Shown here: one piece after another, positions 226-7,787 of the stretch
Layout of the letters: every line of letters starts with the position of its first letter
How positions within the stretch are numbered: position 1 is the first letter of the stretch
From: an uncultured Ruficoccus sp.
GTDB lineage: Bacteria > Verrucomicrobiota > Verrucomicrobiia > Opitutales > Cerasicoccaceae
Length of the DNA stretch: 64,000 nt
Direction of reading: 5' to 3'
NCBI GenBank assembly: GCA_965140785.1
Contig: OZ223484.1
Coordinates: 32,001 to 96,000 of the forward strand
Position numbers and translations under genes: made by a program
Notes under the pieces: model-generated
The model's database searches: none
The model's input: the letters and a program-made list of their open reading frames with translations, nothing else
Told to the model about the DNA's origin: nothing

Positions 226-1107
226 TTAATTCTGCTTAAAATTGACGAAATTTGCCTCATTGTAGCGGATGGCCTGATTGGACCAGTGCCGCATGTCTCG
301 CAGTTCCTCCTCGCTCATGGTGCGGACACTGCCGTCCATCATGGCGGTGACAGCCTTATCGTCGTGCCGCAGATGGACGAAGCCCATGTTGGAGGGGATA
401 TTCTCCGAGTAGCTGCCCCAGCGGATGCCGTCGGGCGAAATGGGCGGATTGGCGATGTAGTAGCCGATATCTTCCCAGTTCTCCGCATACTCACTGAAGG
501 TCGAGACAAACACGATTAACTCGCCGGGCTTATAGGCGACGTCGGGTCGGGTCACACAATAATCGTGCGGATAGGTGGGCGTCCCCACCCGGTCCCGGCG
601 GTCGGCATAGGTGACCGACTCTGGCGAGAGCGTGCTACTGCGGAAGTTGCCGCCGACAAAGGTCATGTTCAGGCCAAAGGACGGCGTCAGACTGACCCCA
701 TACTCGTCGCGGCGCTTATGCAGGTACTGGAAGTAGTCCTGGTGTTCCCCGATGAACAGGCCGCTCGGGCCGTCGCTCATGAGATTGGCCAGTTTCCAGG
801 GCCAGCGCATGGCCGCTTCCTCGCCCGAAGACAGAACGTGCCCGTCGAAGCCCCGGACGCTCTTCCTGGGCTCGGTTCCCTTGCCCCGTGGGAAAAACCC
901 GCCGTTATCCTGCGGATAGAGCAGGAAGGTTGTAACCAACTGCCGGGCGGCGGCACATTCGTTCGTCAGAGCGGCATGGTCCTTAACCTTCACCGTAACG
1001 GCGAAAGCCATGCTGCTGAGCAGCCCGACAACCGCGATAGCGGCTAGTAACTCTATCAGGGACAGGCCGCTGCGGGCCCGTCCAAGTCGTAGCGTATTGT
1101 TCCTCAT
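226..1107 (-). CDS. Prepilin-type N-terminal cleavage/methylation protein (pseudopilin) with H-X9-DG C-terminal motif
   Basis: Class III signal RSG|LSLIELLAAIAVVGLL; C-terminal RHDDKAVTAMMDGSV. Confidence 0.88.
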   Translation of the reverse strand: MRNNTLRLGRARSGLSLIELLAAIAVVGLLSSMAFAVTVKVKDHAALTNECAAARQLVTTFLLYPQDNGGFFPRGKGTEPRKSVRGFDGHVLSSGEEAAMRWPWKLANLMSDGPSGLFIGEHQDYFQYLHKRRDEYGVSLTPSFGLNMTFVGGNFRSSTLSPESVTYADRRDRVGTPTYPHDYCVTRPDVAYKPGELIVFVSTFSEYAENWEDIGYYIANPPISPDGIRWGSYSENIPSNMGFVHLRHDDKAVTAMMDGSVRTMSEEELRDMRHWSNQAIRYNEANFVNFKQN

Positions 1108-1120
1108 GATTCGTAGTCGT

Positions 1121-2461
1121 TTAATTATCCAGTGTGATTTGCAGGCGCATCTGCCGGACGGTTCCCTCCGGCAGGGTGTTGAGGTCGGTCATGTCGGTAA
1201 CAATAACGGTCTGGGTCCCATCTTCGTTGATGGTAGGGGAAATGTCTTCGGTAGTGTAGGTCTGGCCGGAGCCGTCGCCGTTGGAGTTCCAGGTCTCCAT
1301 GTCATTGGAAACCACCACGCGGTACTCCAGATCGGTCGCCACGGGCTGACGGCGGTAGGTCAGGGTCAGGTGCTTGCCGTCCTCGCTGATTCCGGCCTGG
1401 GGGAAGGCCGCCGGATCGCTCATCTCTTCCGGGGTACCGCCAAAGGCGTACTCAAGGAGGTTGATCAAGCCATTCTGGTTCGGGTCGGCATCGGGCTTAC
1501 CGTTGACCTCCGGATCACTGCCGGTGAAGGAGGGCAGGATGATATTATCCTTCCACTTGTCGTAGGTCTGCGGCGCGAAGACGGCCTTGACGTCGAGGTT
1601 GCCGTCGATGGTCGTCACGACGGAGGGGTTGGTCGAGTCCACGTCGCCGGTCCAACGGACGAAAACCCAGCCCGGCTCAGCCACGGCGGTCAGCACCACC
1701 TCGTCGCCCGGCTCGTAGGTGATCCGGGGACCACCGCCCCCGGAGAGCTCGTGCTCAACGGAGCCCACCGCGCCGGTGGCGAAATTCGTGTTGGTCTTCG
1801 GGAAGATGGCGTTGCTCAGCTCAGCCGAGAACCCGTCCCAGGTGTCCAGTGTGGCCCACCACAGGCTCATGCTCTCACTGGTAGAGCCAAACTCGATATA
1901 ATACTCGACCACGTCGTAGGCGCTCAGGTCCCACTCCCAGGCCATGATGCCCTGCCCGTCGTTGCTTGTCAGAAAACCGATATGGGTGTACGCGATCGGG
2001 CCGATCACGGGTCCACCCTCGGTCTCGCGGAGGTAAATGACGGCCTCCTTGTCAGGCAAGCTCCCCACCGTATTGACCTGAAAAACCACCTGGCCGGGAC
2101 TGTAGGCCGGGTCGTCATAGACCAGAAATGACGTGGGTTCGGAAAAGCTGTAGATGCCCCCGGAGCTTTGTATATACCATGCCGTATCGGTCCCGATCTG
2201 TGCCAGCACCGCGTCCCCGTTTGTGCTGTGGCTCTCGGCGGTGGGTGTGTTCACATCCTCGGGAACGGGCGTGTAAAAGGGGTTCTCCCACTCCGTGTAA
2301 GCCTCCTGTAAGCTGTCAAACTGCGCGAACTCACTGTTAGGCAAGCCATCGAAAGCCGGAATAATGTAGTTCTCCCGGAAAAACTGCGTTTCTCCGTACA
2401 GCCCTGTCGCGATCAAAGAGAAAGACAGAACTCCCAGCGCCTGCTTGCCCAACCGATACAT
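1121..2461 (-). CDS. Secreted multidomain surface protein (N-terminal domain related to the neighbouring PEP-CTERM protein; InlB-B-like repeat; DxxxNGLxNLLEYAFG tail)
   Basis: Signal peptide from ATG 2461; repeat-like TYEPGDEVVLTAVAEPGWVFVRWTGD; DPNQNGLINLLEYAFG motif. Confidence 0.75.
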   Translation of the reverse strand: MYRLGKQALGVLSFSLIATGLYGETQFFRENYIIPAFDGLPNSEFAQFDSLQEAYTEWENPFYTPVPEDVNTPTAESHSTNGDAVLAQIGTDTAWYIQSSGGIYSFSEPTSFLVYDDPAYSPGQVVFQVNTVGSLPDKEAVIYLRETEGGPVIGPIAYTHIGFLTSNDGQGIMAWEWDLSAYDVVEYYIEFGSTSESMSLWWATLDTWDGFSAELSNAIFPKTNTNFATGAVGSVEHELSGGGGPRITYEPGDEVVLTAVAEPGWVFVRWTGDVDSTNPSVVTTIDGNLDVKAVFAPQTYDKWKDNIILPSFTGSDPEVNGKPDADPNQNGLINLLEYAFGGTPEEMSDPAAFPQAGISEDGKHLTLTYRRQPVATDLEYRVVVSNDMETWNSNGDGSGQTYTTEDISPTINEDGTQTVIVTDMTDLNTLPEGTVRQMRLQITLDN

Positions 2462-2486
2462 TTTTTTTGAAAAAATCTCTTGCATT

Positions 2487-2531
2487 TGAAACTCAGTCTC
2501 AGTTTTATGCGTCTATTGTTATCGAGTCTCA
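2487..2531. promoter_or_regulatory. Fur-box-like 7-1-7 inverted repeat(s) in a divergent promoter
   Basis: TGAAACT-C-AGTCTCA at 2487-2501; weaker TGTTATC-G-AGTCTCA at 2517-2531; same motif upstream of hemS. Confidence 0.6.
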
Positions 2532-2554
2532 TTACCACAGTCAACAACGAACCT

Positions 2555-3256
2555 ATGAAAACTACGCAACTTATCGCCCTGACCGCCGCTTTGCTCGCGC
2601 CGGCTCTTTCGCACGCCGATTTTATGGCCTTCAATCTGGGCAGCCTGACCGAATCCGGAACATGGACTGACCTGAGCAATGCCAATTACACCAGCGGTGA
2701 CGGCTACCCCGGCAACTTCCCCGGCGGTTCCTCCTGGACGACGCCCATCACAGCCAGTGGCCTGGATGCCGATCTCGACATGGTCTCCGGCCAATCGTGG
2801 TTCAGCAGCTCCAGCTATATCTATAATTTCTCCGCCTCGAGCTACACGATCAGCACCACTACGCCGATCACCGGCCTGGAAACGCTCGTGCTCCAGCTAG
2901 AGAACAACGAAGGCTTCAGCAGCATCACACTGAACTATAACGGGGGCACCCAGGAGCTGGCCGCCAGCTACATCGGAACCTACACCGGTACCCATAGCTC
3001 CAGTGGTCCGGAAGGCACCAGCTATAGCAACGTAGATGTCTATCAGTGGGACCTCTCGAGCGTGGTCGGCAGCATCACCGACTATACGATCAACCTGACC
3101 ACCAACGACCACACCGTCTTGTACGGCATCAGCCTGAGCGAGGGGAACACCTACTCCACCATCGCCGTTCCCGAGCCCTCGACCTATGCCGCCCTGGCCG
3201 GTCTAGGCATTCTCGGGTTCGTGCTGCTGCGCCGCCGCAAGCTTTCCCAGAAGTAA
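2555..3256 (+). CDS. PEP-CTERM sorting domain protein (Ser/Thr/Tyr-rich)
   Basis: Signal peptide MKTTQLIALTAALLAPALSHA; C-terminal VPEPSTYAALAGLGILGFVLLRRRK. Confidence 0.93.
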   Translation: MKTTQLIALTAALLAPALSHADFMAFNLGSLTESGTWTDLSNANYTSGDGYPGNFPGGSSWTTPITASGLDADLDMVSGQSWFSSSSYIYNFSASSYTISTTTPITGLETLVLQLENNEGFSSITLNYNGGTQELAASYIGTYTGTHSSSGPEGTSYSNVDVYQWDLSSVVGSITDYTINLTTNDHTVLYGISLSEGNTYSTIAVPEPSTYAALAGLGILGFVLLRRRKLSQK

Positions 3257-3573: not shown

Positions 3574-4647
3574 TTACCCAATGGCCTTGAGGAGTTCGCG
3601 CCAGCTCTCCAGTTCGGGGCTGCCGGGCTTACGCTCGCCGAAGAACTGGACGATGACCTCGCCGTCCTTGTCGAAGACTTCCAGGGAGTTGACTTCGCCG
3701 TCGGCGGTGGGCTTGCGGACGAGCCAGCAGGAGGCGATGCCGGACTCCTTCAGGTGCAGGTTAAAGCCCGGATCGAGCACGTTGTACCAGTCCTGATACT
3801 CCATCACCTTCTTGACCGGGCCGGTGTGGATCTGGATGCAGTGGTCGTTGCCGACAAAGACCATGATCGAGTTCTGGCGTTCGCTGGCCAGGTCGAGCAC
3901 TTTGCGGGCGGCGTTGTTGTCCACCTTCTGCGTAAAGCTGCCCTCGGCCAGGCGCAGGGCCTGCTCGCGGCCGACACGGTGCTTCATCAGCAGGGGGAAA
4001 AAGTCGTGCGTGTCCTTGAGGTTCTTCCAGCCCTCGAGCAGGCTTTCCTTGTCGATCTCGGCGTCCGGGCGGTCTTCCTTGCGCGGGGCCGGGGCCTCCA
4101 CGCTGGCGCCCTGCGACTGGTCCTCGGAGCGGTACTGCTCCACGATCTGGTGGAACGGCTCGATGCCCTCGTCGCTTTTAACGTAAATCTTGTGGATGGC
4201 CGTCCCGGTCGGGTCGAAAATCTGGAGCGAACGGCTGTGCCCGCCGGGGATGGAGAGGTCCTCGACCGCGAAGGCGTGCTGCCAGCCGGCCATGAAAAGC
4301 CGCAGGTCAATGTCCTTGCCGGTGGTCAGGCCGACCTTGCCGCCGTGCACAAGCGGGTGGATCTGCTCGTATTCGCCGGTCTTCTCATGCACGCAGTTGT
4401 CGTTGCGGGTGAGGACCATGACCTTGCCCAGGCTCTTCCAGGCTTGCATGAACGGCTCCCAGTCCTTCACCTCCAGGCGCGTCACGGTGTCTCCGCACTG
4501 GGTGGCCAGCAGTTCCATCTCGCTCACGCCGAGTTCTTCAGCCGCGTTGCGGATCCGCAGTTTGGGATTGGCCTCCAGCAGCTCCGCCCAGCGGGCTTTA
4601 AGTTCCTGGGGCGACGAAGTAGCGTCGGTAATGGTCGTATTCATCAT
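3574..4647 (-). CDS. hemS: Hemin-degrading/transport factor HemS/ChuS/HmuS
   Basis: LRIRNAAEELGVSEMEL, TRNDNCVHEKTG, IQIHTGPV, QFFGERKPG; duplicated ChuX/HemS domain; start ATG 4647 or 4644. Confidence 0.95.
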   Translation of the reverse strand: MMNTTITDATSSPQELKARWAELLEANPKLRIRNAAEELGVSEMELLATQCGDTVTRLEVKDWEPFMQAWKSLGKVMVLTRNDNCVHEKTGEYEQIHPLVHGGKVGLTTGKDIDLRLFMAGWQHAFAVEDLSIPGGHSRSLQIFDPTGTAIHKIYVKSDEGIEPFHQIVEQYRSEDQSQGASVEAPAPRKEDRPDAEIDKESLLEGWKNLKDTHDFFPLLMKHRVGREQALRLAEGSFTQKVDNNAARKVLDLASERQNSIMVFVGNDHCIQIHTGPVKKVMEYQDWYNVLDPGFNLHLKESGIASCWLVRKPTADGEVNSLEVFDKDGEVIVQFFGERKPGSPELESWRELLKAIG

Positions 4648-4663
4648 AGCTTTTTTATAAGTT

Positions 4664-4678
4664 TGAGATTGAGTCACA
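4664..4678. promoter_or_regulatory. Fur-box-like site between the divergent hemS and hmuT
   Basis: TGAGATT-G-AGTCACA, a 7-1-7 imperfect palindrome. Confidence 0.6.
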
Positions 4679-4718: not shown

Positions 4719-5690
4719 GTGAAAAAGCCTTATCCATTCCTCCTCCAGCATCTCGGCCTCCTGGCCACGCTGCTCATCGCCCCCGCTCTGCACGCGGAAA
4801 ACTCGGCCGCCCCCGCCGTCTGCCCCATCACCGGCAAGACCGGCCCCATGCCCGCCGGCCATCCCGGCGCTGCCAGCCACCAGGCCGAGGCTCCGCAGGA
4901 GAAGGAGCGCATCATCACCATCGGCGGCGCCCCCACGGAGATTGTCTTCGCACTGGGCCGGGGGGATGAAGTTGTCGCCGACGACCTCTCCAGCACTTAC
5001 CCGCCCGAGGCGGCCCGCCTGCCCAAGGTCGGCTACATCCGGCAGATTTCGCCCGAGGGCGTGCTGTCGATGAATCCGGATCTGGTCGTGACGAGTGAGT
5101 CGCTCGGCCCGCCCCCAGCCAAGCAGGCCATGAAGCGCGTCTCCATCCCCGTCGTCTGGTGCCCGGAACCGGAGAGCCCGGAAGCCCTTTACGCTTCCCT
5201 TGAAAAGGTCGGCCAGGCCCTCGACCGCGAGGAGAATGCCGCCGCCCTGATTGCTGATATCAAAAAGCAGCTGGCCGACGTCCAGGCCGCGACCGCCGCG
5301 TGGGAAACCCAGCCGCGGGTCATCTTTTTCATGCGTCCCCCCTCCATGGACCGCCCCGGCATGGTCGCTGGAGCCAACACCCGGGCCGACGCGCTCATCG
5401 TGCTGGCCGGCGGGCAAAATGCCGCCACCGGGGTCAAGGGCTACCAGCCCTACGCGCTGGAGTCGCTCATTGCCGCTCAGCCGGACGTGATCCTGCTCGG
5501 CACCGGTATGGGCCACGGAGCCGGCCCCGGCGATGCCGATTACCTGCTGGGGCTCGATGAGCTGAGTCAGGTCCCCGCCGTGCAAAACGGACGTGTCGTC
5601 GCCGTGCCGATGGACGACCTCAGCTTCGGCCCCCGCCTCGGCGAGGCCGCCGCCCGCTGGTCCGAAACGATCTCGCCCGCCGACAGCTGA
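4719..5690 (+). CDS. hmuT: Heme ABC transporter periplasmic binding protein
   Basis: RIITIGGAPTEIVFALG, DLSSTYP, VGYIRQISPEGVLSMNPD (Tyr heme-ligand motif), LSFGPR. Confidence 0.9.
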   Translation: MKKPYPFLLQHLGLLATLLIAPALHAENSAAPAVCPITGKTGPMPAGHPGAASHQAEAPQEKERIITIGGAPTEIVFALGRGDEVVADDLSSTYPPEAARLPKVGYIRQISPEGVLSMNPDLVVTSESLGPPPAKQAMKRVSIPVVWCPEPESPEALYASLEKVGQALDREENAAALIADIKKQLADVQAATAAWETQPRVIFFMRPPSMDRPGMVAGANTRADALIVLAGGQNAATGVKGYQPYALESLIAAQPDVILLGTGMGHGAGPGDADYLLGLDELSQVPAVQNGRVVAVPMDDLSFGPRLGEAAARWSETISPADS

Positions 5691-5843: not shown

Positions 5844-6903
5844 ATGAATCCCGCCCGTTCCCAAACTGTTAAAACGCTGCTGCTCGTTCTGCTCGGCCTC
5901 TTCACTGTAGCCATCTCGCTGCTCAGCCTGAATGTCGGCACGGTCGAGCTGGAAACAAGCGAAACCGCCCACGTCCTCGCCTACCGCCTCGGTCTGGACG
6001 CGGAAAAACCCTCCATCCTGGCCGACACCGTGGTCTGGGATCTGCGCCTGCCGCGCATTGTGCTCGGGCTGGCCGTGGGCGCGGGCATCTCGCTGGCCGG
6101 CGCGGCCATGCAGGGACTTTTTCGTAACCCACTGGCCGATCCGGGCATCATCGGCGTCTCCAGCGGTGCCGCCACCGGCGGTGTGCTGGCAATCCTTTTC
6201 GGGGGGGTTAATGTTCCAATCCGTCCCCTTCTTCACCCAGTACGCGCTGCCGATCTGCGCCATGGTCGGCGGGGTGGTCGCAACCTTTCTCATTTACCGG
6301 CTCTCCAGTATCGGGGGGCGCACCCACATCGCCACCATGCTGCTGACCGGGATCGCGGTCAACGCCATCTCCGCCGCGCTAATCGGCTTCATCGTCACGC
6401 GTTTCGCCGACGATGCGCAGATCCGCTCCATCACCTTCTGGACGCTGGGCAGCCTGGCCGGAGCCAACTGGCACAGCGCCATCCTCGCCACCGTGCTGAC
6501 CGTCCTCGGCGGCGTCTGGGTGCTCAGCCAGTGGCGCGCGCTCAACGCCTTCCTCCTGGGCGAGGCCGAAGCCTTCCAACTCGGTATCTCCGTCCAACTG
6601 GTTAAGCGCGGCCTGATCTTCGTCACCGCGGCCATGGTCGGCGTGACCGTCGCCGCCTGCGGCATCATCGGCTTTGTCGGGCTGGTCGTCCCGCACATGA
6701 TCCGGCTCAGCCTCGGCCCCGACCACCGCTGGCTGCTGCCCGGATCGGCCATCCTCGGGGGCGCGGTCATGGTCGGCGCCGACCTGGGCGCCCGCACCCT
6801 TGTCGCCCCGGCCGAGCTCCAGATCGGCATCCTCACCGCGCTGATCGGCGGCCCGTTCTTCCTCGGGCTGCTGTTGTCGGCCAAACGCAAACTCTCGATC
6901 TGA
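5844..6903 (+). CDS. hmuU: Heme/iron-chelate ABC permease (FecCD family), split by a +1 frameshift at a G7 tract
   Basis: LRLPR and MQGLFRNPLADPGIIGVSSGA in one frame; FWTLGSL and GIIGFVGLVVPH in another; removing one G at 6201-6207 joins them. Confidence 0.9.
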
Positions 6904-6907
6904 CGCC

Positions 6908-7694
6908 ATGCTGGAGGCCCGCCAACTGACCTTTTCCTACGGCAAGCACCCCGTGCTCGACGGGGTCTCGCTCAAGCTCGTGCCCGGCAAGCTCGTCGCC
7001 CTCCTCGGCACCAACGGCGCGGGCAAGTCCACCCTGCTCAAGCTCCTCACCGGCGAGCTTCACGCCTCCGCCGGCGATGTCACCCTGGAGGATAAACCGC
7101 TGCGCACCTGGCACGCCCGCGAGCTGGCCCAGGCCCGGGCCGTCCTCCCGCAGGAGCCCCGGCTGGCTTTTAATTTCACCGTACGCGACGTTGTCCTGAT
7201 GGGGCGCACGCCGCACGTCCAGCGCGGCGAGACTTACCGCGACCGCGAGATCTGCCAGCTCGCCCTTCGCCGCGTGGATCTGCAGGACTTTGAACACCGC
7301 TACTACCTGGAGCTCTCCGGCGGCGAACGCCAGCGCGTCCACCTGGCCCGCGTCCTGGCCCAGATCTGGGAACCGCTGGAGCAAAGACCGCGCTACCTGC
7401 TGATGGACGAGCCGGTGGCCGGGCTCGACCTGGCACACCAGCACGGCACCCTGCGCATCGCCCGCGAATTGGCCGCCGAGGGCGTCGGCGTGCTCGCTAT
7501 TCTCCACGACATCAACCTCGCCCTCGCCTACGCCGACGAAACCGTTCTGATCAGCGGCGGCTGTGTCGCTGCCGACGGCCCGACCGCCGAGGTCCTGACC
7601 GAGGAGCGCGTGGAGGATGTCCTTCGATGTCCGCGCCATCCTCCACCCCAATGCCAGCGGCGCCCCCTTCATGCAGACCCTCCCCCGCGCCTGA
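6908..7694 (+). CDS. hmuV: Heme ABC transporter ATP-binding protein (apparent +1 near 7621 alters the C-terminus)
   Basis: GTNGAGKST, LSGGERQRVHLARVLAQ, LLMDEP; deleting one C at 7621-7622 gives DVFDVRAILHP...RA* ending at 7694. Confidence 0.9.
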
Positions 7695-7787
7695 GATTTT
7701 AAGCTTTTGCCCGTGGAAAAGACGTTGACAGCGCCGCCCCGGGCCGGTTGTTTAGCCGCTTACTGACCGCAACCCGGTTGCTGGTTT

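Follow-up and report, generated by a model that had tools for sequence, protein, structure and literature searches.

A candidate surface heme-capture domain and an associated H-X9-DG prepilin at a hemS-hmuTUV locus of an uncultured Ruficoccus

The window, i.e. the whole stretch of 64,000 nucleotides analysed here (uncultured Ruficoccus sp., contig OZ223484.1), contains near its beginning the following genes and features, in which the two surface proteins are designated P1 and P2 and the domain common to them domain A.

226..1107, minus strand: H-X9-DG prepilin, 293 aa; TIGR02532 22.5 bits (cut-off 16.3), TIGR04294 19.5 bits (cut-off 19)
1121..2485 or 1121..2461, minus strand: P1, secreted protein of three domains, 446 aa from 2461
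1124..1564, minus strand: C-terminal domain of P1, residues about 300-446, without Pfam match
1571..1723, minus strand: divergent InlB B-repeat domain (PF18998) of P1, residues 247-297, E 6e-9
1814..2392, minus strand: domain A in P1, residues 24-216; Tyr104 at 2150-2152
2487..2501, no strand: 15-bp imperfect palindrome, copy 1, between the divergent P1 and P2 genes
2555..3256, plus strand: P2, PEP-CTERM protein, 233 aa; signal peptide, domain A, PEP-CTERM tail at 3164-3238
2618..3163, plus strand: domain A in P2; Tyr90 at 2822-2824, His186 at 3110-3112
3574..4677, minus strand: hemS, two HemS/ChuX domains, PF05171 E 4e-79; likely start 4647
4664..4678, no strand: 15-bp palindrome, copy 2, between the divergent hemS and hmuT genes
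4719..5690, plus strand: hmuT-like periplasmic binding protein
5844..6903, plus strand: hmuU permease, split across two frames near 6201 in this assembly
6908..7702, plus strand: hmuV, heme ABC transporter ATPase, NF010068 304 bits (cut-off 261)

According to family models, the HemS and HmuTUV proteins of the window are ordinary members of the canonical Gram-negative Hmu system, and passages of PMC12094164 describe the import of heme by HmuTUV and the freeing of iron by HemS processing as established for these families. The frame split of hmuU is probably an assembly error, since the contig of run X2 (depth 8.5), otherwise identical, has one base fewer near 6201. The prepilin gene, which was absent from an earlier note made on this DNA from the letters alone, lies 13 bases downstream of the P1 gene on the same strand, and its product carries both marks of the class, the N-methylation motif and the H-X9-DG motif.

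P1 consists, in this order, of a signal peptide, domain A, an InlB-B-repeat-like domain and a widespread unnamed C-terminal domain; the longer start at 2485 is common to its close orthologues. The C-terminal domain, matched as many as about 40 times in a single related genome and often in reading frames of more than 1000 aa, is likely an export or anchoring module, perhaps a lineage-specific sorting domain. The tail of P2 is recognised above cut-off by PF07589 and TIGR02595, the named PEP-CTERM subfamilies all scoring below cut-off. A hydrophobic N-terminal leader is visible in both sequences, in agreement with the surface or secreted location of hemophores. Named homologues of P2 belong to Ruficoccus, Rubellicoccus, Puniceicoccales and Botrimarina. 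A 373-aa reading frame at 1010-2131 on the plus strand was set aside as an antisense shadow of P1. The palindrome is a candidate iron-repressor (Fur-like) operator. Of 14 orthologous loci, 13 have a match to it ahead of the P2 gene that agrees in at least 10 of 12 positions, a raw count without a chance baseline. The heme-uptake system is likely iron-repressed.

The earlier note had proposed that P1 and P2, whose reading frames it had placed correctly (1121-2461, minus strand, 446 aa; 2555-3256, plus strand, 233 aa), share one heme- or iron-capture domain displayed with two different anchors. The five motif pairs that it listed were all found and are colinear, and the shared domain indeed stands before two different anchors, the PEP-CTERM tail in P2 and the C-terminal domain in P1. 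As to the alignment of the two proteins, the expectation held at the level of profiles, hhalign of the orthologue profiles (15 and 13 rows) giving Prob 97.1 and E 6e-11 over 165 columns, and a deeper alignment 96.3, against 0.3 for the reversed control. It failed in pairwise comparison, which did not rise above chance: BLASTP of P1 against P2 gave no significant match (best E 0.89), and the Smith-Waterman score of 45 was reached by 66 of 500 shuffles (37.8 +/- 6.0). The two other PEP-CTERM proteins of the window lack the shared pattern, as had been noted, with hhalign values of 0.14-0.19.

Domain A is an unnamed domain of about 180 residues, for which the P2 profile (E<=0.001, 1.84 billion representatives) yielded 472 clusters at 50% identity, and which was found in environmental bacteria of the Verrucomicrobiota, Planctomycetota and Armatimonadota. 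The domain A of P1 and P2 gave no match in Pfam, among named NCBIfam models above cut-off or in PDB sequences (E<0.2), and the ESM Atlas returned just PEP-CTERM clusters without a name, whose values of 0.75-0.76 are too low to count as leads. Carriers of the domain bear PEP-CTERM tails, the C-terminal module of P1 or, in Planctomycetota, other tails, a PEP-like tail pattern ending 138 of the best 150 proteins. One protein, P0138, contains three tandem copies fused to a further secreted domain, domain B (residues 526-776), which is described below. Of the 93 PEP-CTERM-like reading frames of the genome to which the window belongs, two alone score strongly for domain A, namely P2 and a paralogue encoded on contig C47.

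In the 154 domain rows of the best 150 proteins, the Tyr of the IYxF motif, which the earlier note had singled out as a possible ligand, stands at the start of one strand and is conserved better than any other residue, in 150 of 153 non-gap rows; a His situated after a later strand is kept in 127 of 153 non-gap rows and across three phyla, and several Trp are conserved. The proposed pairing of this His with a Met of P1 proved to be one residue out of register: His186 of P2 aligns with Ser197 and not with the adjoining Met198, and in a subclade of 10 rows that includes the P1 of the window, Ser or Thr replaces the His and is followed by Met in 9 of the 10. The His is also missing in a few rows outside these 10 P1-type rows. 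In a tree of 65 rows, from which six partial or poorly aligned rows and the P2 row of the window were left out, a clade of 17 P1-like orthologues (support 100/99) is separate from one of 33 rows (99/99) that comprises most PEP-anchored copies, so that the P1/P2 pair is an old duplication.

The AlphaFold model of P2 is all-beta (pLDDT 96) and that of P1 has three domains (pLDDT 91). The two models, although independent, agree in strand order and in top structural neighbours, and the predicted fold of domain A is the jelly-roll beta-sandwich by which carbohydrate-binding modules (CBMs) are recognised, the best fold match being 8x8h for both P2 (Z 9.2, rmsd 2.7, 115 residues aligned) and P1 (Z 8.0, rmsd 2.8, 109 aligned). 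Galactose-binding-like CBMs (8x8h, 8wc1, CBM22) share the jelly-roll with a Z of 8-9 and an rmsd of about 3 Å over 110-135 residues; domain A differs from them in having about 10% identity, no Pfam CBM match and a heme-gene context. In the structure comparison advised in the earlier note the top matches were CBM-like, and no hemophore structure occurred among the 50 matches listed in each of the two wide fold searches. Foldseek gave no structural match at E<=0.001. Judging from the strand order of the models, the Tyr and the His should lie at one shared end of the sandwich.

The gene context of domain A was compared at 42 fetched loci besides the window, drawn from 40 relatives, 301 genomes of the phylum, 301 planctomycete-side genomes and a one-protein search (2 loci), a few weak matches in the phylum sample that failed the domain-A profile being left out. 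Heme markers within 6 kb were present at 24 of the 42 loci, in line with the enrichment at heme loci that had been anticipated, and absent at 18; the pilin was present at 23 and neither at 9. As a baseline, one of the 93 PEP-CTERM genes of the window's own genome adjoins hemS. Of the 40 relatives, 14 have a full-length P1, and P2 adjoins it in all 14 loci, which contain within 6 kb hmuTUV in 13 cases, hemS in 11 and the pilin in 12; HutZ occurs in two of them, namely the two hmuTUV loci without hemS. In the own family, full-length P1 is present in 12 of 15 genomes, exactly the 12 that have hemS, many of the supporting genomes being close kin.

Other heme machines accompany the domain elsewhere. 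It occurs with HutW (above cut-off), a flavodoxin, a receptor, HemS and HmuTUV at L079, with a receptor, TonB, ExbB and HutZ at L078, and with a receptor, HmuTUV and HutZ at L082 and L083. The order at L081 is receptor, domain A, ExbB-like, CobN-like, so that the domain-A gene stands beside the receptor like HmuY; no match to the HmuY family was obtained on that fetched stretch. The receptors adjacent to domain A score 284-338 bits on TIGR01786. At the planctomycete locus L119, domain A is followed by HmuTUV and HemS with neither pilin nor receptor nearby, and at L097, L098, L113 and L135 a heme receptor and HmuTUV are present, domain A being absent on the fetched stretch. On contig C47 (72148-74064, L035), a 328-aa PEP-CTERM domain-A protein is divergent from the second subfamily pilin of the genome, with no heme genes near, and similar orphan pairs of domain A and pilin were observed at L085, L086, L089, L090, L115 and L116. 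The domain-A genes at L095, L120 and L121, which come from both phylum samples, adjoin genes for Kelch-repeat proteins, one of them fused to DUF4198.

In HasA, NEAT and HtaA the iron ligand is a Tyr, often with a His in support, and NEAT and HtaA occur as repeated domains on different anchors. Domain A resembles these families in its candidate Tyr and His and in the three copies of P0138, and seems to differ from them, going by the top fold matches listed, in its predicted CBM-like jelly-roll; P1 and P2 are without a sequence match to them in Pfam, NCBIfam or PDB sequences. The Bacteroidota gene set hmuYRSTUV, as outlined in sections of PMC12094164, includes a receptor with HmuY and a CobN-like HmuS, and the combination of domain A with a heme-type receptor, an ExbB-like and a CobN-like gene at L081 is similar to it, a likeness that belongs to that locus and not to the window. 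No match to the HmuY family was found for P1 or P2 (Pfam E<=0.05, NCBIfam E<=0.1). Domain A is carried on a PEP-CTERM tail or a C-terminal domain, whereas HmuY has a lipoprotein anchor, and its candidate ligands are Tyr/His, in contrast to the His/His given for HmuY in parts of PMC6200708 and PMC12094164. The Yersinia-type Hem/Hmu system (HemR/HmuR, HemS, HmuTUV) is matched by the ordinary HemS and HmuTUV of the window, but a prepilin and two surface proteins occupy the place of the heme TonB receptor. By sequence, the domain-A family lies outside HasA, HmuY, NEAT and HtaA, yet it would appear to work like them.

Domain A is probably a new family of surface heme-capture domains, with P1 and P2 as paralogous carriers that would perform the first step of uptake, and to much the same degree it seems probable from the conserved residues that heme is bound by the Tyr and the His. 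This reading is favoured because both residues are conserved and are of the kinds usual as heme-iron ligands (His-Tyr and His-Met in passages of PMC6200708), and because the domain recurs with differing heme machines; the proposal of the earlier note is likely right in outline and was rated as partly supported. That the similarity and neighbourhood of P1 and P2 reflect chance or plain synteny, as their non-significant pairwise alignment might be taken to indicate, is refuted by the controlled profile match, the common predicted fold and the linkage across gene orders and phyla. A role in binding glycans or hemoproteins has to be considered because the fold is a CBM-like jelly-roll: domain A could be an adhesin or a docking module that keeps the cell on glycans or heme proteins when iron is scarce and does not bind heme itself. 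The top structural matches, all of them CBM or lectin-type jelly-rolls with Z 8-9, the conserved Trp and the 18 of 42 loci without a heme marker agree with such a role, which is nevertheless unlikely, as a fold shared at about 10% identity shows no function, a Pfam CBM match is lacking, the Tyr is the best-conserved residue with the His kept across three phyla, and domain A accompanies four kinds of heme machinery. It is also quite unlikely that the domain is a broader scavenger of iron or other metals (ferric chelates, other tetrapyrroles, Co/Ni) for which heme is one context. The adjacent transporters are of the heme type (NF010068 and HutW above cut-off, TIGR01786-type receptors), which speaks against this broader role, while paralogues near a flavodoxin (L111), SufBD (L090), DUF6607 (L094) and Kelch and DUF4198 genes (L095, L120, L121) would fit it, as would the subclades with Ser for His, which suggest altered ligands.

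About 50-60 H-X9-DG prepilins are encoded in the window's own genome, and two paralogues out of about 59, both beside a domain-A gene, constitute the subfamily of the heme locus; the window prepilin has one close paralogue (E 6e-34), the next match being at 2e-11. The profile of this subfamily matches 18 of the 301 genomes of the phylum. Nine loci were found by the pilin alone, and hemS and hmuV are directly adjacent in five of them, with hmuT/U where the contig allows. In the blind sample of 301 genomes, hemS was present in 12 and the pilin in 10 of these 12, across four families, a co-occurrence of 10 where 0.7 would be expected if the two were independent, kin not being independent of one another. 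The association of the pilin with heme genes is no looser than that of domain A.

Its relation to the heme receptor is the reverse. A heme-type TonB receptor, called as such above a self-chosen threshold of 230 bits on TIGR01786, was found in one of the 10 genomes with both hemS and pilin, where its neighbour is an ABC transporter of the ferric-citrate type, and beside hemS in both of the two hemS genomes without the pilin. In a larger, hand-assembled set the receptor is present in 2 of 24 pilin-bearing heme genomes versus 8 of 8 pilin-lacking ones, the latter count being biased because two of the eight genomes had been found through the receptor. Pilin and heme-type receptor occur together at none of the 42 domain-A loci, and the presence of the pilin is opposite to that of the receptor and does not follow the passenger domain. 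A canonical heme-type TonB receptor was not found at the locus of the window or in its genome, and TIGR01786 gave no match at E<=1e-30 in G000-G004 (G000, the genome of the window, 91% complete; G001 98%, in 2 contigs). Since the pilin occurs where the usual receptor is missing, it may stand in for it.

TonB receptors of other types are present. Each of the five own-genus genomes has at least one large receptor, all of 1100-1156 aa and the two classified ones TIGR01782-like, in a tally that sets aside a foreign-looking contig of G000 with 39% GC. This contig (C9, 44 kb; three other contigs have 58-61% GC) carries SusC/SusD-like genes and looks like contamination from another phylum. The sole genuine TonB receptor of G000, TIGR01782-like and 1115 aa long, sits at C46:53479-66901 (L132) in a cluster that also encodes TonB, ExbB, a 525-aa protein and a PEP-like protein, an arrangement kept across the genus. 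An apparent lack of a TonB receptor in G004, according to PF00593, was rejected when the plug model detected one of 1156 aa; the former model overlooked a FecA-like receptor of G009 as well, and some receptors were missed by family models. The pilin adjoins this FecA-like receptor in G009, and in G135 a 695-aa receptor (158 bits on TIGR01785) lies about 2.5 kb upstream of hmuT in the pilin locus. As regards pili, PilB-, PilT-, PilC- and secretin-like proteins are encoded in the window's own genome. In G004 the domain-pilin cluster (L025:2242-8201) is directly beside pilB-pilT-pilB-pilC-like genes, hemS-hmuT being elsewhere, without adjacent hmuUV.

The following sequence of events is proposed. 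In iron shortage the repressor would leave the palindromes of the two divergent promoters, P1 and P2 would be exported and displayed on the surface, and heme would be bound at one end of the sandwich by the Tyr, which is invariant, with the aid of the His; the subclade with Ser-Met, to which P1 belongs, may bind heme more weakly or have a relay role. In some lineages heme would cross the outer membrane through a TonB-dependent receptor, and the route in this organism would need the H-X9-DG pilin, which is the least certain step; HmuTUV would then import heme, and HemS would free the iron. Only tentatively can a pilus-dependent heme import free of a TonB receptor be put forward, in which the jelly-roll hemophores of the surface would pass heme on to a minor pilin dedicated to it, and a type IV pilus or pseudopilus would, by retracting, draw it through the secretin to HmuT. 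Somewhat short of an even chance is given to the pilin being a dedicated pseudopilin of type II secretion, or an adhesin, by which the surface proteins are exported or presented, combined with entry of heme via the large TIGR01782-type receptor or an unrecognised porin, a combination compatible with heme capture by domain A. The large TonB receptors in all five own-genus genomes could carry heme, receptors lie at the pilin loci of G135 and G009, every subfamily pilin beside domain A or B has a secreted protein as its neighbour, and 9 of the 23 loci with pilin and domain A are without a heme marker, all of which is consistent with an export function. However, domain-A proteins also occur at receptor-type loci in genomes in which the search for the pilin gave no match (G330, G288, G141, G202), so that their export does not depend on it, and the pilin accompanies two passenger domains that are unrelated to each other and runs opposite to the heme receptor, not with the passenger.

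As indirect precedents, pilin-like proteins have been implicated in the acquisition of substrates or iron in other bacteria: passages of PMC13174399 describe pilin-like MUL2 proteins of Akkermansia acting in mucin uptake, and sections of PMC13170364 report pilin-dependent growth in low iron for Synechocystis and Legionella. The heme locus resembles these cases in this respect but differs in that they concern mucin or inorganic iron, a minor pilin replacing the receptor in a heme operon not being described in those passages. A TonB-independent iron transport in Neisseria is mentioned in part of PMC12748263. In the full-text literature searched, largely open-access, no account was found of domain A or of this pilin at heme loci, nor of an assigned function for H-X9-DG prepilins.

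It is tempting to speculate that, if import through the pilus is true, the H-X9-DG prepilins, of which Verrucomicrobiota and Planctomycetota have dozens per genome, would be substrate-specific import adaptors replacing TonB receptors, with heme as their first assignable substrate. If domain A binds heme, it would represent a hemophore family on a fold matched here to no hemophore, and one PEP-CTERM family would gain a concrete job. The link of the pilin outweighs the domain in importance, the subfamily tracking hemS and alternating with the receptor, and could be tested by growth on hemin.

Two minor observations concern further proteins of these loci. Domain B, a second unnamed secreted domain of about 260 aa without Pfam match, lies beside the pilin subfamily in eight loci (L122:9566-10489, L123:7033-8682, L124, L125, L126, L127, L128 and L129), in five of them between hemS and the pilin; it is a candidate for a second hemophore and, with an hhalign Prob of 0.1 against domain A, not a divergent form of the latter. 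Many relatives encode a second HemS-like protein, a weaker one (L110:7401-8372, L111:7817-8824, L112:7855-8871), and its gene at L111 adjoins a flavodoxin gene, about 4 kb from the domain-A gene.
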